In this document: positions 4,693 through 63,628 of the stretch, in pieces | Position numbering within the stretch: position 1 is the first letter of the stretch | How the letters are laid out: the number at the start of each line of letters is the position of its first letter | NCBI GenBank assembly: GCA_964599285.1 | Contig: CAZREI010000001.1 | Span: 34,562-98,561, forward strand | Source of the DNA: an uncultured Candidatus Saccharibacteria bacterium | GTDB lineage: Bacteria; Patescibacteriota; Minisyncoccia; Minisyncoccales; Staskawiczbacteraceae | Length of the DNA: 64,000 nucleotides | Reading direction: 5' to 3' | The notes under the pieces: generated by a model | The model's input: the letters and a program-made list of their open reading frames with translations, nothing else | What the model was told of the DNA's origin: nothing | The model's database searches: none | Program-made: the position numbers and the translations under genes

Positions 4693-5175
4693 TTAGTGTC
4701 GCCCTAAAAACTCTTCTAATCCCGGAATATTAATATCGTTTGACCTATCCTTGATAACTCCCTTCTTAATCAAAAGACCCTTCAACTCCTTTTCTTGGTT
4801 CTGAAGGAGAGCTCTAATCTCAGGATCCTCAAGATCCGCCGGGTCAAGGTTGCTGGGCAGGTTGTAGAGGTATGGCCCCTGTTCAAGGTAAGTAAGTGTT
4901 ACTCCCGATGACGTGCCGGGTTTGCCTTCCAGTTGCTCAATAATGAATTTGGCAACACTGACGTTCTTTTCATCGATAGCCTTGTGGAAGAGTTTCTCGA
5001 TTAATAAATCAAGATGGGTAATATCCTTGCTCTCCCAGACCTTACTATTCGCCTTTTCCCTCAACAGTTCTCCGATTTGTTTTTTGATTGATACTGCACC
5101 AAGCGGCCTGCCTTTGGTGTTCCGCCGCGGGTCGTTTCCTTTTTGGAATGGTTTTAATGAATCGGGATTTGCCAT
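4693..5175 (-). CDS. phage/mobile-element-type protein (DUF5681-like N-terminus)
   Basis: The N-terminal 'KPFQKGNDPRRNTKGRPLG' resembles the 'PFxKGxSGNPxGRPKG' motif of phage-associated proteins. Family assignment is from memory. Confidence 0.45.
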   Translation of the reverse strand: MANPDSLKPFQKGNDPRRNTKGRPLGAVSIKKQIGELLREKANSKVWESKDITHLDLLIEKLFHKAIDEKNVSVAKFIIEQLEGKPGTSSGVTLTYLEQGPYLYNLPSNLDPADLEDPEIRALLQNQEKELKGLLIKKGVIKDRSNDINIPGLEEFLGRH

Positions 5176-5475: not shown

Positions 5476-5499
5476 TATTTTGCCAAAACCCCTTACAAT
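5471..5499 (+). promoter_or_regulatory. candidate sigma70-type promoter
   Basis: TTGCAT (5471-5476), a 17-nt spacer, then TACAAT (5494-5499). Confidence 0.3.
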
Positions 5500-5505
5500 A
5501 CAGCT

Positions 5506-5625
5506 AGACTGAGTGGCCTAGTTACGGAGCCACTCAAAACCCCTAATTTCCCTCTTAAAACCCAGGTTCACAACTGGGTTGGGGCACTAGAAAACTAAAA
5601 AGCCGCGGTAAAACTGTGGCTTTTT
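5506..5625 (+). ncRNA. candidate ~120-nt small RNA (two hairpins plus intrinsic terminator)
   Basis: Lies downstream of the candidate promoter. Hairpins are 'gagtggc..gccactc' and 'acccag..ctgggt'. The terminator at 5597-5625 has G-U pairs that only work on the + strand. Confidence 0.3.
5597..5625 (+). terminator. rho-independent terminator
   Basis: The stem aaaaagccgcgg/ctgtggcttttt has two G-T wobbles valid only as + strand RNA, followed by a T-run. Confidence 0.6.
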
Positions 5626-5635
5626 AGTTTCTATT

Positions 5636-5752
5636 CCCAGCAGGACTCGAACCCAAATCACCCCGTGTAGGAAAATATTAAAAACCGAGGGTTTTTAAAG
5701 CAGGGGGTCGGGGTGATTTGAAAGGGTTCTAGCGAAGCGGAGTCCTGCTGGG
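5636..5752. repeat. long imperfect inverted repeat / structured region
   Basis: cccagcaggactc-gaaccc-aaatcaccccg (5636-5665) pairs with cggggtgattt..gggttc..gagtcctgctggg (5709-5752). Confidence 0.6.
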
Positions 5753-5807
5753 GGCACAAACCAGTGCTAAGTCAACTGACCGACTGGGTCTGATGACTTA
5801 GTCGCTC

Positions 5808-11176: not shown

Positions 11177-11249
11177 GGGCCCATAGCTCATTCGGTAGAG
11201 CGCGCGCATGGCATGCGCGAGGTGACGAGTTCGAATCTCGTTGGGTCCA
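11177..11249 (+). tRNA. tRNA-Ala (anticodon GGC)
   Basis: Manual cloverleaf: acceptor GGGCCCA/TGGGTCC with G3:U70, D arm GCTC..GAGC, anticodon loop ATGGCAT, T arm ACGAG-TTCGAAT-CTCGT, discriminator A. No encoded CCA. Confidence 0.9.
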
Positions 11250-17089: not shown

Positions 17090-19717
17090 ATGCCCCAATC
17101 CGCAGCGGTTTTTGAATTTACTTCTTATACATTTGAACCCGATAAAAAAAGGGTTCTTTTCCGTTACACCACCAAATTTAAGGATCGACCACCGCTGCGT
17201 TTTACCGAAACTATTTTGTTGCCAAAGATTCCCAACCTTGATCGCATTCCGCCAGAACCTTTAAAAAAACTCCTCCAAAGCCTGCACTTAATACTGGGCA
17301 TCAGTTATTACAAGTTTTATTGCCCGCCCGCCGTAGCCTTGGCGAAGGAGGATGCGAAACTGTCAAAACAAGAAGCCGAGTTTTGGAACATCGTATACAA
17401 AAAAGGCCTTGGCGAATTTTTTTACAAAAACAATCTGAATCCAAACCGCGCTCCAAAATTTCCGTACGGGGTAACCCGTAACCAGGAACCCGTAACCAGT
17501 AAATTACGCGTTACGGGTTACGCGTTACCGGTTACCAAAAGATCTCTCGTGGGCATCGGGGGAGGAAAAGACTCCATCGTCGCCGCGGAATTATTGAAAG
17601 AAGGCGGGTTTGACGCCACCGCGTTTTACGTTCAAACCAGCAGCGACTCATCGCTGGTAAATAGCATCATCAAAAAAACTGGCCTGCCGTCGCTGAAAAT
17701 TCGACGATTGCTAGACGAAAAAGTGCATCAACCTCATCTTTATGATGGCCATGTTCCCGTGTCAGCCATCCTGGCATTTTTGGGATTTTTTGCCGGCATA
17801 CTTTACGGTTTTGATTATGTCATCGTGGGCAACGAATACAGCAGTAACTTTGGCAACCTCAAATACAAAGGTTTAGACATTAACCACCAGTGGAGCAAGT
17901 CGTTTGAATTTGAAACGCTTTTTCAAACCTATGTAAAAACTTTCATCACGCCTGACATAACCTATTTTTCTTTGCTGCGGCGGTTTTACGAAATCCGGAT
18001 TGTAAAATTGTTTGCAAGTCATAAAAAATATTTTCCGCATTTTTCAAGCTGCAATTCCAATTTCAGAATCGCGGAATCACGCGGAAATTTACGCGGAAAA
18101 ATGCGGAATAAATGGTGTGGTCGATGTGCTAAGTGTGTTTTTGTATTTACACTTCTGTCGGCGTTTTTACCAAAAAAAGAATTGGTTAACATTTTTAAAA
18201 AAAACTTGTACCAAGATAAAACTCTCCTGCCATTATTTAAAGATATTTTGGGATTTGGCGCGATGAAACCTTTTGATTGCGTCGGCACGTTTGAAGAAGC
18301 GCAAACCGCGATGTGGCTGGCCAAAAAAAGATTCGCCCGTGATTTTATTATGCGACAACTTGGCCGGCGCGTAACATTTCACCAAGAAGTTTTTACGACC
18401 AACAAAAACGCCCGCATTCCCGAACAGTTTACTTTCTTGGGAATGGATAGCACGTTGATAGCCGGATTTGGCAACGAGGGAAGTGCTACCAAGAAATACC
18501 TTGAAAAATATTACCCAAAATTAAAACTTGGGATAGCCGAAATATATAAAAATAGGGAAGTGTTCCGCGTAGTTCCGCGTGAATTTCCGCGTAGTTCCGC
18601 GGCTTTTGATCTGGCAATCAAAACTCCAGGCATCAAAAAAGAACTGATTAAAATTCCGTACACCACCGCCACCAATATTTTTTTCTCAAATATTTCCGGC
18701 AAATATCTTACTATCGGCGTTACCGGCAGCAAAGGAAAAAGCACCACCGCGTCACTCATTTTTCATATCTTAAAAACCGCCGGAAAAAATGTTCACCCCG
18801 TTAAATCCGCCAAAAGCGGTGTTTCGCAAACTGCGAAACAATTTAACAGGGTAAAACTATTGGGCAACATTGGAAAACCCATGCTAGAAAATTTGCTCCA
18901 TCCTATAGCAAAAAATACCATTTTTGTCCTGGAACTTTCCAGTTACCAGTTAGATGACCTGCGGTTTTCTCCCGATATTGCCGTGGTGACAAATTTATTT
19001 CCGGAGCACTTGGATTTTCACGGTAGTCTTCAACATTATTACGATGCCAAAAAAAATATCATCCGCTACCAGCAGCCCGACCAATATTTTGTCTACGATA
19101 AAAAAACTGAACCGTGGCTAAAAGAATATCGAGGCAAGCCGGTGCCATTTGCCAAAACAATTCCGGTTCCAAAACACCAAATTCCATTATTGGGTCAGCA
19201 CAATGAAAGCAACATTAAAGCGGCCATCGCCGTCGCTCGGATTTTAAAAATTCCGGAAGCAAAAATAAAAAAAGCCATTAAATGTTTTAAAGGCTTACCG
19301 CATCGATTAGAAAACGTAGGAACATTTAAGGGAATTATTTTTTACGACGACGCCATTTCCACCACGCCCGAATCAACCATCATGGCCATCAAAGCCTTGC
19401 CAGGCGTGCAAACTATTTTTTTGGGAGGCAGCGACCGCGGCTACGATTTTTCGCAGTTGGAAAAAACCTTAAAACAATATAAAATAAAGAACGTGGTGCT
19501 GTTTCCCGACACCGGCTCGCGCATCATAAAAAACACCAAGGGTTTGAATATTCTAAAAACTCGCAGCATGGAAAAAGCGATTGCCTTCGCCTACAAACAC
19601 ACCACACCAGGACACATCTGTTTATTGTCCTGCGCATCGCCCAGCTATTCATTATGGAAAAACTTTGAACACAAAGGCACCCAATTTACCAGATTGGTAA
19701 AAAAGTTGGCTAAGTAG
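17090..19717 (+). CDS. murD: fusion protein: PP-loop-like N-terminal domain (possible MurL-type epimerase) plus UDP-MurNAc-L-Ala--Glu ligase MurD
   Basis: The C-terminal half carries 'IGVTGSKGKSTTASL', 'LELSSYQLDD', 'NLFPEHLDFHGS' and 'GLPHRLE'. The N-terminal ~455 aa carry 'VGIGGGKDSIVAAELL' and 'WCGRCAKC'. Confidence 0.85.
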   Translation: MPQSAAVFEFTSYTFEPDKKRVLFRYTTKFKDRPPLRFTETILLPKIPNLDRIPPEPLKKLLQSLHLILGISYYKFYCPPAVALAKEDAKLSKQEAEFWNIVYKKGLGEFFYKNNLNPNRAPKFPYGVTRNQEPVTSKLRVTGYALPVTKRSLVGIGGGKDSIVAAELLKEGGFDATAFYVQTSSDSSLVNSIIKKTGLPSLKIRRLLDEKVHQPHLYDGHVPVSAILAFLGFFAGILYGFDYVIVGNEYSSNFGNLKYKGLDINHQWSKSFEFETLFQTYVKTFITPDITYFSLLRRFYEIRIVKLFASHKKYFPHFSSCNSNFRIAESRGNLRGKMRNKWCGRCAKCVFVFTLLSAFLPKKELVNIFKKNLYQDKTLLPLFKDILGFGAMKPFDCVGTFEEAQTAMWLAKKRFARDFIMRQLGRRVTFHQEVFTTNKNARIPEQFTFLGMDSTLIAGFGNEGSATKKYLEKYYPKLKLGIAEIYKNREVFRVVPREFPRSSAAFDLAIKTPGIKKELIKIPYTTATNIFFSNISGKYLTIGVTGSKGKSTTASLIFHILKTAGKNVHPVKSAKSGVSQTAKQFNRVKLLGNIGKPMLENLLHPIAKNTIFVLELSSYQLDDLRFSPDIAVVTNLFPEHLDFHGSLQHYYDAKKNIIRYQQPDQYFVYDKKTEPWLKEYRGKPVPFAKTIPVPKHQIPLLGQHNESNIKAAIAVARILKIPEAKIKKAIKCFKGLPHRLENVGTFKGIIFYDDAISTTPESTIMAIKALPGVQTIFLGGSDRGYDFSQLEKTLKQYKIKNVVLFPDTGSRIIKNTKGLNILKTRSMEKAIAFAYKHTTPGHICLLSCASPSYSLWKNFEHKGTQFTRLVKKLAK
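17464..17536. repeat. intragenic in-frame hairpin (CGTAAC/GTTACG words)
   Basis: 'ggtaacccgtaaccaggaacccgtaacc...gttacgggttacgcgttaccggttacc' encodes 'GVTRNQEPVTSKLRVTGYALPVT'. Confidence 0.7.
18067..18113 (+). repeat. intragenic array of 4x CGCGGAA
   Basis: 'aatcgcggaatcacgcggaaatttacgcggaaaaatgcggaa' encodes 'ESRGNLRGKMRN'. Confidence 0.7.
18558..18602 (-). repeat. intragenic array of 4x TTCCGCG (inverse of the 18067 array)
   Basis: 'ttccgcgtagttccgcgtgaatttccgcgtagttccgcgg' encodes 'FRVVPREFPRSSA'. Confidence 0.7.
18796..18851. repeat. intragenic in-frame compound hairpin
   Basis: Outer stem ccccgttaaat/atttaacaggg with inner hairpins ccgc-caaaa-gcgg and tgtttcgc-aaact-gcgaaaca. Encodes 'HPVKSAKSGVSQTAKQFNRV' between the MurD P-loop helix and 'LLGNIG'. 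Confidence 0.7.
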
Positions 19718-19720
19718 AAC

Positions 19721-19806
19721 TGGCTACCAAATACGAATCTGTACGAATATACCAATAACCAAAGCGTTTTCATTCGTATATTCGTACAGATTCGTATTTG
19801 GTAGCA
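19721..19806. repeat. family D (TACGAATAT-word) long hairpin, copy 1
   Basis: Perfect 29-bp stem gctaccaaatacgaatctgtacgaatata / tatattcgtacagattcgtatttggtagc. It ends 3 nt before the ftsW start. Confidence 0.85.
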
Positions 19807-19808
19807 TA

Positions 19809-20936
19809 GTGATGAAGCAACACATAAATTATTATTTTTTAGGATTATCCATTATTCTTTCCGGATTCGGTCTGCTGTTTTTATCAACCCTTTCGGCCAT
19901 CGCCTCGCTGCAAGTGTTTGGCAACACTAACCACTATTTATTCCACCAATTAATTGCCCTGGTCATTGGCATTGTTGCCGGCATCATCATATTTTTTCTG
20001 CCGCTGGGATTTTTAAAAAAACTGTCGCCGATATTGCTGGTAATAAATGTTTTGGGATTGGTGGTGGTATTTTTGCCATTTTTGGGAACCAAATTTTGGG
20101 GTGCTTCGCGCTGGATTAGCGTGGGAGACACCACCTTCCAACCTTCGGAATTTTTTAAAATCACCATCATTTTATTTTTTGCCAGCTGGCTTGCCAGCAA
20201 GTTCTCCGAGTCATCAAAAAGAGGCTTTGGATTTAAAATAAAAAAAGAGTACGATAATCTGGTAAAAGTATTTGTGCCTTTTGTTATTTTTTTGGCCATC
20301 ATCGCCGCCATTTTTTATTTACAAAAAGACATCAGCACGCTGGGCATTATCATGGTGGCGCTCTTGGGAATGTACTTTATTGCTGGCACGCCGATTTGGC
20401 ACACGCTGACATTGCTAGTGGTTGGAGTGTCAGGTGCGGCGCTGGTTATTATTAAAGAACCTTATCGCTTAAACCGTTTGCTGATATTTTTGCATCCGGA
20501 CGCCGACCCTTTGGGCAAAGGATTACAATTAAAACAGTCACTCATTGCCCTGGGATCAGGTGGTTGGTTTGGAAAGGGGCTTGGCATGTCCACCCAAAAA
20601 TTCGGCTTTTTGCCCCAAGCCATGTCGGACTCTATTTTTGCCATTTTGGGAGAGGAACTGGGCATCATCGGTTGCGCTATTTTGGTGCTGGCATTTTTAG
20701 CATTTTTGTATTTGGGATTTAAAATCTCGCGCCAATCAACTGATTCATTTGCTCGCCTGACCGCCGTTGGCATCACCCTGTGGATTGTGTTTCAGGCGTT
20801 TTTCAACATAGCCTCAACCCTGGGGTTGTTTCCACTAAGCGGCATTCCGCTGCCATTTTTTTCTTACGGAGGCTCGCACATCATAGCGGAACTGATGGGA
20901 GTGGGGTTGATGTTGAATATCTCTAAGAACGGGTAA
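19809..20936 (+). CDS. ftsW: SEDS-family peptidoglycan glycosyltransferase FtsW/RodA
   Basis: Multi-TM protein with 'GGWFGKGLGMS', 'SDSIFAILGEELG' and 'PLPFFSYGGS'. Confidence 0.9.
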   Translation: MMKQHINYYFLGLSIILSGFGLLFLSTLSAIASLQVFGNTNHYLFHQLIALVIGIVAGIIIFFLPLGFLKKLSPILLVINVLGLVVVFLPFLGTKFWGASRWISVGDTTFQPSEFFKITIILFFASWLASKFSESSKRGFGFKIKKEYDNLVKVFVPFVIFLAIIAAIFYLQKDISTLGIIMVALLGMYFIAGTPIWHTLTLLVVGVSGAALVIIKEPYRLNRLLIFLHPDADPLGKGLQLKQSLIALGSGGWFGKGLGMSTQKFGFLPQAMSDSIFAILGEELGIIGCAILVLAFLAFLYLGFKISRQSTDSFARLTAVGITLWIVFQAFFNIASTLGLFPLSGIPLPFFSYGGSHIIAELMGVGLMLNISKNG

Positions 20937-25553: not shown

Positions 25554-25610
25554 GGATAATAGTAGTTCGCATAATTATAGTTAAGCGTACCATAAGAGGC
25601 CCTTAAACAT

Positions 25611-26591
25611 ATGGAACAAAGCAATATACCAATCCCAAAACACATAAATAACTTCTTAGATTGGATAGATATTGAAAAAGGATTATCTTCTAAAACTCAA
25701 GAAAATTACCGCAGATTCCTTGAAAAATTTTTGGTTTGGTTGAAAAAAAATAATTTAGAAAGTTTGCTTCCCCACCAGCTAACCAAAGAACATATTTGGG
25801 ACTATAGGGTCCACTTATCACGTCATTCCCCTCGACCCAGCCGACCTGGGTACCCCGATAACCAGCCTTTAAAGAAGATAACCCAAAACTACTATTTAAT
25901 CGCTTTAAGGGCCTTTTTAGGCTATTTTGTGGCCAAAGACATACTTTCCATGCCTCCCGATAAAATAACGCTTTCTAGGCCCGATAAAGAGAAAATAGTG
26001 AAGTTTTTGACACTAGAACAGCTATATAAGCTATTTTTAGCTCCAGATACCTCTACGATGCAAGGATTGCGAGATAAAGCCATATTAGAGACCTTCTTTT
26101 CAACCGGAATGAGAATATCAGAGTTAACTTCTTTAAATCGGGAGCAAATTAAAATCAAACCAGGTGCAAATGAAATAGAACTTGGAATTGTCGGCAAGGG
26201 AGGCAGGGCTAGAACCGTTTATTTTTCAAAAAGCACCGTAGAATCGCTAAAAAAATACCTTGACGCGCGAGATACTCAAAACGATAAAGAAAAGGCATTA
26301 TTTGTAAGTTATAGCGGAAAAAAAAATTCACCACACAGATTAACTCCAAGAGCCATTGAAAAAAACTTAAAAAAATACATCATTTTGGCGGGTCTGCCGG
26401 TCACCACAACCCCCCATGTCCTGCGCCATAGCTTTGCTACTGATTTATTGACCCAAGGCGTGGATTTAAGAGTTATCCAGGAATTTCTGGGACATAAAAG
26501 CATTGTTGCCACTCAAATATATGCCCATGTTACGAGTAAAAAATTAAAAGATATCCACCAAAAATTCCACGGCGAGCCAGGTTCAAAGTAA
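25611..26591 (+). CDS. tyrosine recombinase, XerC/XerD-like
   Basis: 'HVLRHSFATDLLTQGVDLRVIQEFLGHKSIVATQIYAHV' (R-H-R-Y catalytic region) and 'GKGGRARTVYF'. Confidence 0.85.
   Translation: MEQSNIPIPKHINNFLDWIDIEKGLSSKTQENYRRFLEKFLVWLKKNNLESLLPHQLTKEHIWDYRVHLSRHSPRPSRPGYPDNQPLKKITQNYYLIALRAFLGYFVAKDILSMPPDKITLSRPDKEKIVKFLTLEQLYKLFLAPDTSTMQGLRDKAILETFFSTGMRISELTSLNREQIKIKPGANEIELGIVGKGGRARTVYFSKSTVESLKKYLDARDTQNDKEKALFVSYSGKKNSPHRLTPRAIEKNLKKYIILAGLPVTTTPHVLRHSFATDLLTQGVDLRVIQEFLGHKSIVATQIYAHVTSKKLKDIHQKFHGEPGSK
25821..25858. repeat. intragenic in-frame repeat word in the recombinase gene
   Basis: 'cgtcattcccctcgacccagccgacctgggtaccccga' (family C-like GTCATTCC plus a cccag..ctggg hairpin) encodes 'RHSPRPSRPGYPD'. 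Confidence 0.45.
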
Positions 26592-27671: not shown

Positions 27672-27711
27672 CACTCTTGTCGCATAATTACTTATTTGCT
27701 ATACTTATACT

Positions 27712-28212
27712 ATGACAGCGAAAATATCAGAATTTAATTTAGCTCAACTTGCCAGCGATGACGGCTGTTTTGATTTGCAGTTTCGCAAGGATACTCGGCA
27801 CGATCGCACCGGCTCCCCCACTTACTATCGCTGGAAGGCGCAATTTATTATTACCCTGCCAAAAGAACAAGTTGACATTTTGGAAAAAGCTAAAAAAACT
27901 ATCGGCTGTGGTACGGTTTCAAAAACTGCTACACAAGCCCGATTTTCGGTCCAGAACATTGATGATATTGCCGATGGCGTAATCCCCTACTTTACCCAAC
28001 ACAAGCTGTCGGGCAATAAAAAACAAGATTTTTCGCTGTGGCAAAAAGCCGTCCAAATTATTTACCAAAATAAGCGGACGCCGCTTTCCAAATGGAAAAA
28101 GAATGATTTGTTGAGCCTTCTGCAAATCCACAAAGCCAGCGCCAAATATAAAATAAAACCCAAAAAATCCAAGTGGATGGAGATGGCACAAGTGTTAGTT
28201 AAAAAACCGTAA
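27712..28212 (+). CDS. LAGLIDADG-family homing endonuclease, single-motif (homodimer-size), free-standing
   Basis: 'FNLAQLASDDGCFDL' is a LAGLIDADG-type motif. 166 aa. 'GVIPYFTQHKLSGNKKQDFSLW' is typical of the family. Confidence 0.75.
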   Translation: MTAKISEFNLAQLASDDGCFDLQFRKDTRHDRTGSPTYYRWKAQFIITLPKEQVDILEKAKKTIGCGTVSKTATQARFSVQNIDDIADGVIPYFTQHKLSGNKKQDFSLWQKAVQIIYQNKRTPLSKWKKNDLLSLLQIHKASAKYKIKPKKSKWMEMAQVLVKKP

Positions 28213-31407: not shown

Positions 31408-31444
31408 ACAATTGTTATGTAATTGAACTATTAAAGTTATTATC

Positions 31445-31530
31445 TTGCTACGAAATACGAATTTTTTACGAATATACGAAACTAAACGCTTATGTTCGTA
31501 TATTCGCAGGTAATTCGTATTTCGTAGAGA
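31445..31530. repeat. family D long hairpin, copy 2 (rpmA leader)
   Basis: 'gctacgaaatacgaattttttacgaatatacgaa...ttcgtatattcgcaggtaattcgtatttcgtagaga' ends 5 nt before ATG 31536. Confidence 0.85.
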
Positions 31531-31535
31531 AATTC

Positions 31536-31814
31536 ATGTCAACAAGTAAATCATCAGGTTCATCCAGGCTCGGCCGAGATTCGGCCGCACAGCGCCTTGG
31601 CATTAAGCGATACGCCGGCCAAACGGTAAAAACCGGCATGATCATCGTGCGCCAGCGCGGCACGCGGTATTTGCCTGGAAAAAATGTAAAACGCGGATCG
31701 GACGATACGCTCTACGCCTACAAACCGGGAACGGTGCGGTTTGCAACTAAATTAAAAAAGTTATTTAATGGACGGCAACGGCAGGTTAAGGTGGTGAATG
31801 TAGACGCAAAATAA
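31536..31814 (+). CDS. rpmA: ribosomal protein L27
   Basis: '[56 protein letters not shown]'. The start was trimmed to ATG 31536. Confidence 0.9.
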
Positions 31815-35901: not shown

Positions 35902-36210
35902 TTATATCGCGTTTTCTTTCTGGCGGATTTGGAGGATTTTGTTTTGGAGGGTTCTTTGGGCCATCAGGTCCTTTGGGTTTTTAATTCCCAATTTTGGCAT
36001 GATTCCCAAGAATCCCGACCGGTACATCCAAATGCCGATGACCGCAATTACCAGCGGCAGGAAAAACGAATCGGTCAAAAGATTATTGGTCAGCCCAGTT
36101 GAAACATTAGTTGGGCCAAGTCCTGGTGTCACAATCACCGACGCGCTGGCGTTTCCTGGGTCATACCCGGGATCGGTGGTAGTGACAATAACGTTGTTTG
36201 CACTAGTCAT
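35902..36210 (-). CDS. small membrane protein
   Basis: 102 aa with TM 'FFLPLVIAVIGIWMY'. The start context 'tcgtagagaaattcATG' is identical to that of rpmA. Confidence 0.45.
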   Translation of the reverse strand: MTSANNVIVTTTDPGYDPGNASASVIVTPGLGPTNVSTGLTNNLLTDSFFLPLVIAVIGIWMYRSGFLGIMPKLGIKNPKDLMAQRTLQNKILQIRQKENAI

Positions 36211-36215
36211 GAATT

Positions 36216-36304
36216 TCTCTACGAATTACGAATGTAGTACGAATATACGAATGCAAATGTTTTTGGTTATTGGTATATTCGTAAAAAATTCGTATTTCGT
36301 AGCA
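36216..36304. repeat. family D long hairpin, copy 3
   Basis: 'ctctacgaattacgaatgtagtacgaatatacgaatg...ggtatattcgtaaaaaattcgtatttcgtagca'. Confidence 0.85.
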
Positions 36305-36308
36305 TATT

Positions 36309-40305: not shown

Positions 40306-40570
40306 TATTTTAGTACAACGTATCAAAAAAGAATCCTTTTTGATGTATGACATTACATGCTACCCTTTTTGTGTGTTGCTGTCAAGCCTTGGCGCAATTG
40401 GCAAGCATTTTTCTGGGGTTTTTGCCGTGTTCATTATATTCTTTGAAAAATGAAGATAGTATTAATCAGCAAAAAACCAGAAGCAGGAAGCAAGAAAAAT
40501 CTTGTTCAACAAAAAACGCTTTTGCAGCGTATGAGGCATTGTAACCGCAGAAGATTAATATTTTATGAAC

Positions 40571-40657
40571 ATGCTACCAAATACCAATAGTTACGAATAT
40601 ACCAATAACCAAAACGTTTTCATTCGTATATTCGTAAAAAATTCGTATTTCGTAGCG
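40571..40657. repeat. family D long hairpin, copy 4
   Basis: 'atgctaccaaataccaatagttacgaatataccaataaccaaaacgttttcattcgtatattcgtaaaaaattcgtatttcgtagcga'. Confidence 0.85.
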
Positions 40658-40663
40658 ATCGTC

Positions 40664-40726
40664 ATCCCAATAACTTAATAACCACTCCAATAATAGCCAG
40701 CACCACCCCCACTACCCAAAACCGTC
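40664..40726 (-). pseudogene. relic duplicate of the mraY 3' end (last 20 codons plus stop)
   Basis: The reverse complement translates 'RRFWVVGVVLAIIGVVIKLLG*', versus the live mraY C-terminus 'MRFWIVGIVLAIIGVVIRLLG*'. Confidence 0.7.
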
Positions 40727-40732
40727 GCTTCG

Positions 40733-40817
40733 CTCCTTAGAAACCCACGGTTTCTAACGTGTCCGCTTCGCGGCACTGTTTTCCTTCACGGGGAAATACC
40801 CAATTTCCCCGACCCCC
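40733..40817. ncRNA. candidate structured motif, copy 1 (three hairpins)
   Basis: 29 nt are identical to copy 2 (gctccttagaaacccacggtttctaacgt), followed by a variable hairpin and then a conserved 41-nt segment with a covarying 8-bp stem. Confidence 0.35.
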
Positions 40818-40854
40818 TTTGTACGGTTTTGGATTGTCCTGCCTCAAAGAGTTG

Positions 40855-41916
40855 CTATCCCAACAACCGTATTACCACTCCTATGATAGCTAATACAATT
40901 CCAACAATCCAAAACCGCATCGTAACCTTGTATGCTGGCCAGCCTATGGCTTCAAAGTGATGGTGGATGGGTGTGGATTGGAATATTTTTTTGTGGCGAA
41001 ATTTTTTGGATAAAAGTTGGATAATCACTGACAGAACTTCTATCACCAAAAGACCGGCAATGATGGGCAAGACAAAAACGGAATCTGTCAAAAACGCTAC
41101 GACCGACAACGTGGTAGCAAGCCCGACCGTTCCCACTTCTGACATGTAAAACCGAGCCGGCGGAATGTTAAACCACAAAAAAGAAAAAAGCGTTCCCGTA
41201 ATGACCGCGCAGAAAGTTGCCAAATCCACCTTGCCCTGCGAGAAAGCAATAATGGTAAAGGCGCCAAAAATAGAAGCAAAAACGCCGCCAGACAATCCGT
41301 CTAACCCGTCAATGATGCCTCCGGACCAGGTAGCAATCATCACGATAATAAAAACCGGAATATAAAAAATTCCCAAAGAAATATGTCCCAATAACGGAAT
41401 GCTGATTACGTCAAATCCGAGTTTTGCATAAAACCACCAACCACCTACCAATCCAATCAGCGCTACTATCAAAAGGCGTTTTTTAAAAGACAATCCCCCG
41501 CCAACATAACCACCCAGCGACGATACTACCAGCATATCGTCTAAGAGCCCCGCCAATGAAGCGACTATCAACGTAAACAACGGAAGCCAGGTTTGGCTTC
41601 TTGATAAAAAATTCAGATTTGCAAACCAAGTATTAGGAAACAGGAAAGAAATAATATAAAAAAAGAAAATAACCGCTACCGTGGTGATGCAAATTAAAAG
41701 TCCTCCCATGCGCGGCGCCTTGGTTTCACGCTCTTTATGAAGACTGTTAAATACTACAGCTTCTTCTCCGCTGATAGCTTTTTTTCCAGCCTGTTTTTTC
41801 CAGAGCTTATGCTTATACAAAAAATGTATTAAAAAAGGACACCAGGCAATGGCGATGATAGAAGCGGCGGCCGAAACCCCCAAAACCTTAATTACATAAA
41901 ACGTAAGAAGTGTCAT
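40855..41916 (-). CDS. mraY: phospho-N-acetylmuramoyl-pentapeptide transferase
   Basis: Multi-TM protein with 'GLLDDMLVV', 'IIDGLDGLSGG' and 'TPIHHHFE'. Confidence 0.9.
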   Translation of the reverse strand: MTLLTFYVIKVLGVSAAASIIAIAWCPFLIHFLYKHKLWKKQAGKKAISGEEAVVFNSLHKERETKAPRMGGLLICITTVAVIFFFYIISFLFPNTWFANLNFLSRSQTWLPLFTLIVASLAGLLDDMLVVSSLGGYVGGGLSFKKRLLIVALIGLVGGWWFYAKLGFDVISIPLLGHISLGIFYIPVFIIVMIATWSGGIIDGLDGLSGGVFASIFGAFTIIAFSQGKVDLATFCAVITGTLFSFLWFNIPPARFYMSEVGTVGLATTLSVVAFLTDSVFVLPIIAGLLVIEVLSVIIQLLSKKFRHKKIFQSTPIHHHFEAIGWPAYKVTMRFWIVGIVLAIIGVVIRLLG

Positions 41917-41923
41917 TAAACTT

Positions 41924-42097
41924 GGCTACGAAATACGAATTTTTTACGAATATACGGAAACGCTTCGCTTCTCCACGAATTACGAAACGAGTACGAATAT
42001 ACGAACGTGAACCTATGACTCATTTTCGTATATTCGTAAGATTTCGTATTTCGTAGCCCGTTTTGGTATATTCGTAAAAAATTCGTATTTCGTAGCG
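41924..42097. repeat. family D double-length hairpin cluster, copy 5
   Basis: 'gctacgaaatacgaattttttacgaatatacgg...cgtatattcgtaagatttcgtatttcgtagc' plus 'ggtatattcgtaaaaaattcgtatttcgtagcga'. It starts 8 nt upstream of the mraY ATG. Confidence 0.85.
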
Positions 42098-42100
42098 ATA

Positions 42101-48294: not shown

Positions 48295-48376
48295 CTTACG
48301 AATTACGAATTTGGCCGAATTACGAATGTACGAATTCGCCGTATTCGTAATTCGCTTAAATTCGTAATTCGTAGGA
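48295..48376. repeat. family D-type hairpin, copy 6
   Basis: 'cttacgaattacgaatttggccgaattacgaatgtacgaattcgccgtattcgtaattcgcttaaattcgtaattcgtagga'. Confidence 0.8.
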
Positions 48377-63404: not shown

Positions 63405-63474
63405 TACCCTGCTCCTTGTTGTTAAGGTGCGACCACTCAAAAAATCCGCAACGTCACTCGCCTTTTTTGGGCGA

Positions 63475-63592
63475 GCTCCTTAGAAACCCACGGTTTCTAA
63501 CGTCTCTGTGCTCATGAGAATTTTTTGCTAAAAATTCTCATGAGCACAGGACTGTTTTCCTCCACGGGAAGATACCCAATCTTCCCGACCCC
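63475..63592. ncRNA. candidate structured motif, copy 2 (pyrB upstream region)
   Basis: Same conserved flanks as 40733-40817. The variable middle hairpin is expanded to a 19-bp stem (ctgtgctcatgagaatttt/aaaattctcatgagcacag). Confidence 0.35.
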
Positions 63593-63597
63593 ATCTT

Positions 63598-63628
63598 TAA
63601 AAAAGCAGCTTTAATAGCTGCTTTTTTG
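63598..63628. terminator. bidirectional-shape terminator after rplU
   Basis: aaaagcagct-ttaat-agctgctttt. Confidence 0.65.

Follow-up and report, generated by a model that had tools for sequence, protein, structure and literature searches.

The 3′ end of mraY in the window (the whole 64-kb stretch of DNA analyzed here) is occupied by a structured unit that probably belongs to a family of site-specific insertion elements of the Patescibacteria (candidate phyla radiation, CPR); these would be ORF-less, non-autonomous units of ∼100 to 300 nt that duplicate or supply the end of their host gene. Our proposal builds on the anatomy of the unit, its recurrence at other loci, compensatory and mirror covariation within its core, its presence or absence in relatives and the conservation, as protein, of the gene ends that it displaces. 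The family is apparently large and undescribed in these bacteria: we found no description of it in the literature on CPR repeats, ribozymes and target duplications.

The nearest relatives of the MraY protein encoded here are those of Candidatus Staskawiczbacteria (Parcubacteria/CPR), with which it shares 75 to 87% identity. The reverse complement of positions 40855 to 40920 translates as the live C-terminal tail, MRFWIVGIVLAIIGVVIRLLG-stop, and that of 40662 to 40727 as a second mraY tail, RRFWVVGVVLAIIGVVIKLLG-stop. The initial annotation had described this second tail as a relic conserved in protein and diverged in DNA, and our comparisons confirmed both points. A tblastn search with the tail peptide as query recovered the relic at E = 9e-15. 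The relic matches the 20-residue live tail at 17/20 positions and is its best other match in the window, whereas five shuffled windows reached at most 8/20. Over 20 codons, 16 of 60 nt differ between the tails, distributed 4/1/11 over the three codon positions, with three resulting amino acid changes, all conservative (I/V, I/V and R/K). The probability that 16 random substitutions would give three or fewer changes and no stop is ∼1e-5. No ORF of at least 20 aa in the window's ORF list uses the relic frame; the reading of the relic as a piece of another, conserved ORF was rejected, as none was found in that list. Both window tails fall inside the natural variation of 120 homologues, and relic residues 2 to 21 are identical to the C terminus of P0013, a natural MraY of Staskawiczbacteria, which argues that the relic originated as a true mraY end and diverged under protein-level constraint. 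The two tails are 27% diverged in DNA, as much as orthologues of different species, and the sequences that follow their stop codons are unrelated to each other.

Along the mraY strand, the live stop codon is followed by a 17-nt spacer, a 14-nt arm (40837 to 40824), a 99-nt core (40823 to 40725) and the relic (Table 1); nhmmer matched the core at 40730 to 40823. The initial annotation had recognized a structured motif between the tails, closed by a 10-bp inverted repeat. The motif was found as described, with a fold of three hairpins at z = −5.2 as RNA and −5.5 as DNA, and the repeat (CCAAAACCGT/ACGGTTTTGG) lies at 40716 to 40725 and 40823 to 40832; the features stood and their exact coordinates did not, being 1 to 2 nt off. 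The structured insert had been given as 125 bp, whereas the inserted unit, consisting of live tail, spacer, arm and core, is about 190 nt. The antisense arm had been overlooked, the inverted repeat being part of it. The arm complements nucleotides 40904 to 40917 of the live tail at 14/14 positions and only the first 9 to 10 nt of the relic. The first 9 nt of the relic (40716 to 40724, CGGTTTTGG) are the same as in the live copy and pair with the arm, and in the predicted fold arm and relic start form the 10-bp inverted repeat that closes a four-way junction of the three hairpins. The element spans 40716 to 40908, with edges that are ambiguous within the common CGGTTTTGG, and occupies the last 21 codons of mraY.

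Table 1. Features of the mraY element and related repeats in the window.
Feature	Position	Strand	Sequence or detail	Basis or context
mraY CDS, live gene	40855..41916	-	353 aa, PF00953	ORF list; 100% match to P0001
Live copy of duplicated segment	40855..40917	-	CGG TTT TGG ... GGA TAG, RFWIVGIVLAIIGVVIRLLG-stop; probably supplied with the element	Arm complements first 14 nt
Spacer after live stop	40838..40854	-	17 nt, CAACTCTTTGAGGCAGG; unlike the sequence after the relic stop	Tail comparison
Antisense arm	40824..40837	-	ACAATCCAAAACCG; closing stem of the core	Complementarity, folds, family-wide control
Conserved structured core	40725..40823	-		Folds, compensatory changes, mirror covariation, nhmmer
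Core leader		-	TACAAAGGGGG; third strand AAAGGGG at 40814-40820, then TC	
H3	40790-40810	-	GGGGAAAT TGGGT ATTTCCCC	Fold
Core junction, after H3		-	GTGAAGGAAAACAGT	
H2	40761-40774	-		Fold
H1	40737-40757	-	TTAGAAACC GTG GGTTTCTAA	Fold
Core tail	40725-40736	-	GGAGCGAAGCGA; includes GCGAAGC mini-hairpin, 40727-40733	
Relic (displaced) mraY tail	40662..40724	-	RFWVVGVVLAIIGVVIKLLG-stop; stop TGA at 40662-40664	tblastn and tail comparison
Palindromic intergenic repeat	40561..40661	.	ATACGAAT-rich; unrelated to core	Abuts relic stop codon
Palindromic repeat copies	40561-40665, 19717-19813, 36209-36308, 31437-31556, 41925-42099, 48297-48374			
Second core copy	63466..63600	-	Long perfect H2	Between rplU terminator and pyrB-like gene
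Third core copy	5630..5760	+	Circularly permuted, opened at H3 loop	nhmmer and fold

Within the 190-nt unit there is no supported ORF of at least 20 aa. At the gathering threshold, Rfam 15 searched over the whole window returned no family that fits the insert; at E up to 10, the region 40600 to 40960 gave a chance lncRNA match only, and permissive searches of both motif regions gave nothing credible, ribozyme and intron models included. A tRNA/tmRNA scan of the window called only a tRNA-Ala at 11177, and the insert is not a tRNA. Two known arrangements were considered and rejected. In a shufflon, inversion at the 14-nt inverted repeat would ruin the mraY tail, and a template/variable-repeat pair of a diversity-generating retroelement (DGR) does not fit differences that are of all types, not A-specific, and that fall for the most part on third codon positions; nor was a reverse transcriptase seen nearby.

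Comparison of mraY 3′ regions revealed that relatives with 84 to 87% identical MraY have a single tail and no core, which indicates that the insert is lineage-specific; the second tail is absent from all 80 genome loci and from L201 to L203 that we examined. In by-eye counts of DNA identity to L001, L201 and L202, synonymous sites are saturated and the window tails are not separable by age. An exact look-up in the collection of the excised-state MraY (body joined to relic tail) gave no match. A diverged relative of the core is also present in the closest reference genome, directly after the mraY stop (L001:7063-7130); it is made up of a GGGAG..CCCTC hairpin, GTGCAGGAAAATAGT and a GCCGCGAGC hairpin and is not accompanied by a second tail, which hints at a wider superfamily.

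The relic most likely represents the original tail of the resident gene, with the live tail, spacer and arm having arrived with the element. This assignment draws on four observations: it is the live tail, not the relic, that the arm matches; the stop codons of the two tails are followed by unrelated sequences; a repeat family native to this genome directly adjoins the relic; and the tails differ as orthologues of different species do, mostly at synonymous positions. The repeats in question (ATACGAAT/TACGAATTTTTTACG) are present in at least six copies in the window, often directly 3′ of stop codons, and two of them flank mraY. Because the relic directly adjoins one of these copies, the DNA downstream of it would be native. 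The initial annotation had read the locus as the footprint of an element that integrated into the 3′ end of a gene and brought a replacement tail. The footprint is supported by the same motif between duplicated ends elsewhere and by relatives without the insert. The imported tail finds support at mraY in the arm, post-stop and repeat evidence, whereas perfect repeats at two other loci (L084 and L128) suggest duplication in place.

The search for the motif beside other duplicated gene ends, which had been proposed earlier, found it at dozens of other loci; a scan of metagenome contigs with a degenerate H3 pattern gave at least 120 loci in all. Two scans of viral contigs with such a pattern returned 0 matches, and a phage origin was rejected on this basis. 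Aligned copies share the order NACAGAGGGGG-TC, H3, GTGNNGGAAA, an optional and variable H2, H1, and then GGAGCGA, a variable hairpin and GCGAC, with core boundaries that are constant in more than 100 copies. The surrounding layout is also recurrent, running from gene end through spacer, arm and core to a second gene end, and the unit is always co-oriented with the gene. In protein genes the last 5 to 28 codons and the stop are duplicated; the targets comprise mraY (window, L084, L173), EF-G, L11, sensor kinases, a 577-aa protein and others. In tRNA-type copies, the segment from the T loop to the 3′ end of the tRNA is repeated after the core. Among the matches listed, mraY is occupied three times independently, complete tRNAs end 28 to 83 nt before the core at 18 loci, nearby tRNAs are co-oriented with the core in 34/36 cases, and 11 loci of ≤15 kb contain two copies each.

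Directly before each core lies a locus-specific arm complementary to the first nucleotides of the duplicated segment, in many cases reaching 1 to 3 nt past it upstream. Among the matches listed, flanking direct repeats scored at least 12 at 54/91 loci compared to 9/91 controls, and the arm scored at least 12 against its own upstream copy at 45/91 loci compared to 3/91 controls; of the two flanking copies, the arm fits the upstream one more closely in 65 of these listed cases and less closely in 13. The junctions show no common motif flanking the targets. When ORFs within 3 kb of 128 copies were clustered, housekeeping genes alone recurred, and no recombinase, transposase or reverse transcriptase did so. 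At loci sharing a target, a test for recent horizontal spread did not show the element to be more alike between genomes than its flanks are; the segment comprising live tail and arm diverges alongside the upstream gene, at 70 to 80% identity.

The displaced ends have kept their coding character. In all of the ∼28 credible diverged pairs the relic frame is open and ends in a stop that coincides with the live one or is no more than a few codons away, and in our own tally the codon differences number ∼126 synonymous versus ∼48 non-synonymous (11 versus 0 in L169, 8 versus 0 in L151 and 5 versus 0 in L173). Such preservation could reflect successive rounds of excision and integration, gene conversion between relic and live copy or real use of the relic, the last of which would agree with the intron-like alternative considered below. 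Some relics contain an insertion. In the T loop of those of the tRNA type (L093, L097, L119, L188, L195 and others), GGTTC and GAGTCC are separated by an extra TAG and a small hairpin, in many cases CGAAGCG, and protein-gene relics in L131, L152, L171, L176 and L103 have an extra single T inside TTTGG. In both types the extra sequence sits in the exact middle of the arm-complementary sequence, and it may mark a crossover or cleavage point.

Individual loci show further variants. At L082:1736 (+90 to +290), the 3′ end of a tRNA-Ala is present three times in tandem: the core and a first relic are followed by a different structured insert and then by a third tRNA-Ala end, whose terminator is 95% like the live one. 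This arrangement indicates that one tRNA was struck repeatedly. Downstream of mraY in a distant lineage (L060:6130-6215, L070:5505-5585 and L182), only arm, leader, H3 and junction remain, and the junction GGAAAAA leads directly into the ATG of the next gene, as if the truncated core had been co-opted as its ribosome-binding region.

The window itself contains three copies of the core in its 64 kb. The second is bounded by an outer inverted repeat, AAAAAATCCGC...GCGGATTTTTT, and has no evident duplicated gene end. The permuted third copy runs in the order arm CCCAGCAGGACTCGAACCC, H3 3′ arm, junction, H1, leader with H3 5′ arm, GGGTTC and TAGCGAAGCG hairpin, and ends in a tRNA-like 3′ end, GAGTCCTGCTGGGGGCACA; no matching live tRNA was called upstream of it, and an RNA-like stretch at ∼5480 to 5590 has no Rfam match. 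Just to its left are genes for a large serine recombinase (Resolvase, Recombinase and Zn ribbon; 602-2092, − strand) and a DUF5681 protein (4693-5175, − strand), which may belong to a separate integrated element. A tyrosine recombinase gene (Phage_integrase, XerC/D-like; 25596-26591, + strand) and a free-standing LAGLIDADG endonuclease gene (27688-28212, + strand) lie near the switch from + to − gene orientation at ∼26 to 28 kb. None of the tyrosine recombinase, large serine recombinase and LAGLIDADG genes of the window consistently adjoins a copy. Gene orientation flips at ∼27 kb, and all three copies are co-oriented with their local genes, an arrangement that fits either action on the lagging-strand template or a dependence on transcription.

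In the element that we propose, copies are located within the 3′ end of a conserved gene or immediately downstream of it, the targets being tRNAs, mraY, EF-G, L11 and others. Each copy has the orientation of its host gene and is placed between two direct copies of the gene end, and the host gene therefore stays intact. Read on the sense strand, the unit has four parts: the end of the live gene, including stop codon and trailer; an arm of 13 to 24 nt, the reverse complement of the sequence across the presumed insertion point; the core, with a purine leader that mirrors the H3 purine arm in a putative intramolecular triplex, followed by H2 (where present), H1 and a mini-hairpin of the GCGAAGC type; and the displaced relic gene end. 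Integration would be site-specific, at the junction complementary to the arm, and excision is probable too. Like prophage e14 at icd, the element would bring its own replacement for the gene end, and its folded sense strand would be the acting form, most likely as single-stranded DNA (ssDNA) on the lagging-strand template, with enzymes provided in trans. Several observations count against this proposal: no recombinase, transposase or reverse transcriptase recurs beside the copies; the live-tail/arm segment tracks the divergence of the upstream gene, with no recent horizontal sweeps; and the window's second copy lacks a duplicated gene end. The proposal does not account for the origin of a new arm for a new target, the extra T or TAG-hairpin of the relics is not what simple reciprocal recombination would yield, and the ssDNA step takes its motif chemistry from the literature.

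A further difficulty for an imported gene end is posed by the flanking repeats, which range from perfect to diverged and from 15 to 80 bp in length. They are perfect at L084 (in mraY, 80 bp), L128 (70 bp), L129 (38 bp) and L131 (24 bp), copies that appear on this evidence to be young, and at L084 and L128 they resemble duplication on site rather than imported cargo. Perfect repeats of variable length would be expected if insertion proceeded by copy-and-paste, making a long target-site duplication in place through target-primed reverse transcription of a small core RNA or through a replication template switch; we regard this as a serious though rather unlikely alternative. The tails would then be identical at birth, and gene conversion together with selection on the live copy would keep the relic protein-like. 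In keeping with this, the two tails of one genome are usually closer than orthologous tails of different genomes, yet those of the window are diverged like orthologues and have unrelated post-stop sequences. The L084 repeat extends into the arm, reusing a native ACCCAA as a 6-nt microhomology at the left junction, and inverted templated segments with microhomology are typical of template switching; however, three precise switches would be required at every new site, and the core boundaries are nevertheless constant in the family. Moreover, the arm reaches 1 to 3 nt beyond the repeat into unique upstream sequence, and no reverse transcriptase was seen near the copies.

Variation within the family bears on the form in which the core would act. 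GC/AT compensatory changes are found in H3 pairs 4 to 6 and H1 pairs 1 to 4, the stems covary while the unpaired junction nucleotides are invariant, and G·T pairs outnumber A·C pairs in the core stems when read on the sense (gene) strand. The leader is the mirror image of the H3 purine arm in 54/71 unique copies among the matches listed, compared to a mean of 15.7 and a maximum of 28 in 5,000 shuffles in which leaders were reassigned at random. Leader and H3 vary together as four co-varying types, plus one with a leader T opposite an A of the H3 purine arm (an A-T pair), a variant that fits a purine-motif triplex on the sense strand only. As far as sequence can tell, this mirror covariation is the signature of an intramolecular purine-motif triplex. 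Triplexes of this type are said not to form in RNA (PMC4666352). The commonest small hairpin of the family is GCGAAGC, an "extraordinarily stable" DNA mini-hairpin; the GCGNAGC type is much more stable as DNA than as RNA and occurs at ssDNA priming sites (PMC13037366). The exclusion of purine triplexes in RNA and the preference of the mini-hairpin for DNA, both from the literature and both indirect, suggest that the active form would be the folded sense strand of DNA.

Two further readings place the activity in the core itself. In the broader one, which we consider doubtful, the element would be self-targeting: the ∼90-nt core with its programmable antisense arm would be the active agent, as a guide-bearing ribozyme or DNA structure able to enter and leave the junction complementary to its arm (a "fail-safe intron/mini integrative element" that would always bring a spare gene end, with both tails used and selected), or the core would guide an unrecognized trans-acting recombinase of CPR bacteria. 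In the narrower one, the core would be an RNA made with the host gene, either a 3′-end processing element or a new self-cleaving or self-splicing ribozyme with the arm as internal guide; as a "fail-safe intron," the unspliced transcript would encode the live tail and the spliced one the relic tail, both under selection. The arm spans the putative 5′ junction and pairs with the relic start in a P1/P10-like geometry, and the extra T or TAG-hairpin lies exactly at the expected 3′ junction, but no conserved splice-site nucleotides were seen, and in L093 the relic tRNA half is incompatible with the live 5′ half. The invariant junction nucleotides, covarying stems and natural circular permutation recall ribozymes, the last as in hammerhead and twister, yet no Rfam ribozyme or intron model matched at E up to 10. 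Likewise, the unit is always co-oriented with the gene that it occupies and relic tails are protein-conserved in all credible cases, but the stretch from the live gene end to the arm often contains an intrinsic terminator. Finally, a sense-strand mirror repeat implies the purine type of triplex reported not to form in RNA (PMC4666352), and GCGAAGC hairpins are DNA-favored (PMC13037366). On balance we judge an RNA of this kind improbable. A local tandem duplication of the mraY end around an unrelated structured intergenic motif, such as a terminator or regulatory hairpin cluster, with no mobile element at all, would suit a single genome of this lineage and a locus at which no enzyme was found, but in many genomes the same motif separates the duplicated ends of numerous unrelated genes, each time with a locus-specific complementary arm, and relatives have neither motif nor duplication, making this reading hardly credible.

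If the insertion element that we favor is real, CPR/Patescibacteria genomes are peppered with an unnoticed class of tiny structured elements that occupy the 3′ ends of essential genes and tRNAs harmlessly, each with the complement of its own site. They would constitute a compact, naturally retargetable "address plus scaffold" system for which an enzyme partner or an activity of its own could be sought, and would account for the pseudo-tails and pseudo-tRNA halves that confuse annotation of CPR genomes. A natural, covariation-conserved purine triplex combined with DNA mini-hairpins would point to a function of folded ssDNA in cells, and the family would illustrate the persistence of selfish DNA in very small genomes.

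Among known systems, the gene-end-restoring elements offer the first parallel. Prophage e14 holds the live end of icd and leaves behind the C-terminal fragment icdC, and its excision recombines icd with icdC into a functional chimera with mostly synonymous changes (PMC13626634). As with e14 and phage 21 at icd and with tRNA-gene islands, a direct repeat of the target's 3′ end (attL/attR) flanks the insert at mraY, the live gene is whole again, and its displaced counterpart is still protein-like, with mostly synonymous differences; by analogy, excision would be expected to rebuild a functional chimeric gene here as well. However, e14-type elements are 10 to 50 kb in size, with their own tyrosine integrase and arm-type sites, whereas the mraY-type unit has ∼190 to 300 nt, is ∼100 times smaller than e14 and has no ORF and no tyrosine or serine integrase of its own; it also differs from e14 in its conserved folded core and junction-complementary antisense arm.

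Small mobile repeats offer a second parallel. Like MITEs, REP/BIME and PATE, the core family is small, non-coding, structured and present in many copies per genome (three in the 64 kb here), and is presumably mobilized in trans. Unlike them, its copies share no terminal inverted repeats and no short target duplication of fixed length: the flanking repeats of 15 to 80 bp are gene-derived, and the arm differs from copy to copy, matching its own site.

In nucleic-acid–guided systems (IS110 bridge RNA and IS1111 seekRNA; ω RNAs of IS200/605 TnpB and of IscB; group II EBS-IBS pairings; the group I internal guide), a structured non-coding guide complements the insertion junction, as the arm does here. 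In contrast to those systems, the ∼90-nt core has no adjacent recombinase, nuclease or reverse transcriptase, and the live target remains intact beside the element. IS200/IS605 elements make no target duplication and have a fixed 4- to 5-nt motif and an ω RNA by tnpB or iscB, whereas the family has long flanking repeats, no common junction motif and no adjacent nuclease gene. IS110/IS1111 elements have two split-guide loops and an adjacent DEDD recombinase; here a single contiguous arm of 13 to 24 nt is found, and no recombinase. The Rfam 15 covariance models of group I and II introns and self-cleaving ribozymes gave no match. A scaffold-plus-guide reading of the TnpB type (antisense) or IscB type (sense) was rejected: the targets have no common TAM-like motif, the element would cut its own live target, and the antisense strand required for the TnpB-like form does not accommodate the T-for-A triplex variant.

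Intrastrand-triplex repeats are known from E. coli and further bacteria under the names BoxC, TMECO and PIT (Hoyne 2000; Holder 2015, PMC4666352). They resemble the core as short interspersed intergenic repeats in which a single strand, made up of a hairpin and a mirror-repeat purine strand, folds into a purine-motif triplex, an organization also seen on one strand of the core through the mirror statistics given above; they tolerate T opposite A-T, as the core does, and their link to local genome instability is a further likeness to the core family. The order of strands differs, being R-R-Y in the core (third strand, purine arm, pyrimidine arm) and Y-R-R in BoxC, and the core does not conform to the BoxC/TMECO consensus CCCTCNCCC-N3-6-GGGNGAGGG-N3-GGGNGAGGG (PMC4666352). 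H1, H2, the mini-hairpin, the target-specific arm and the duplicated gene ends have not been reported for BoxC.

Folded ssDNA sites such as CTXφ attP(+), integron attC and G4-type ssi/sso may be likened to the core in that one specific strand folds and its stem mimics a duplex site, and mini-hairpins of the GCGNAGC type found in the core also occur at ssDNA priming sites (PMC13037366). Those sites are fixed protein-recognition sequences (dif-like, R/L boxes, CS-6), whereas the stem sequence of the core changes with its target. Both gene-end-restoring integrative elements and small structured repeats are known, and by analogy the mraY element would combine features of the two within ∼190 nt, together with a nucleic-acid arm.
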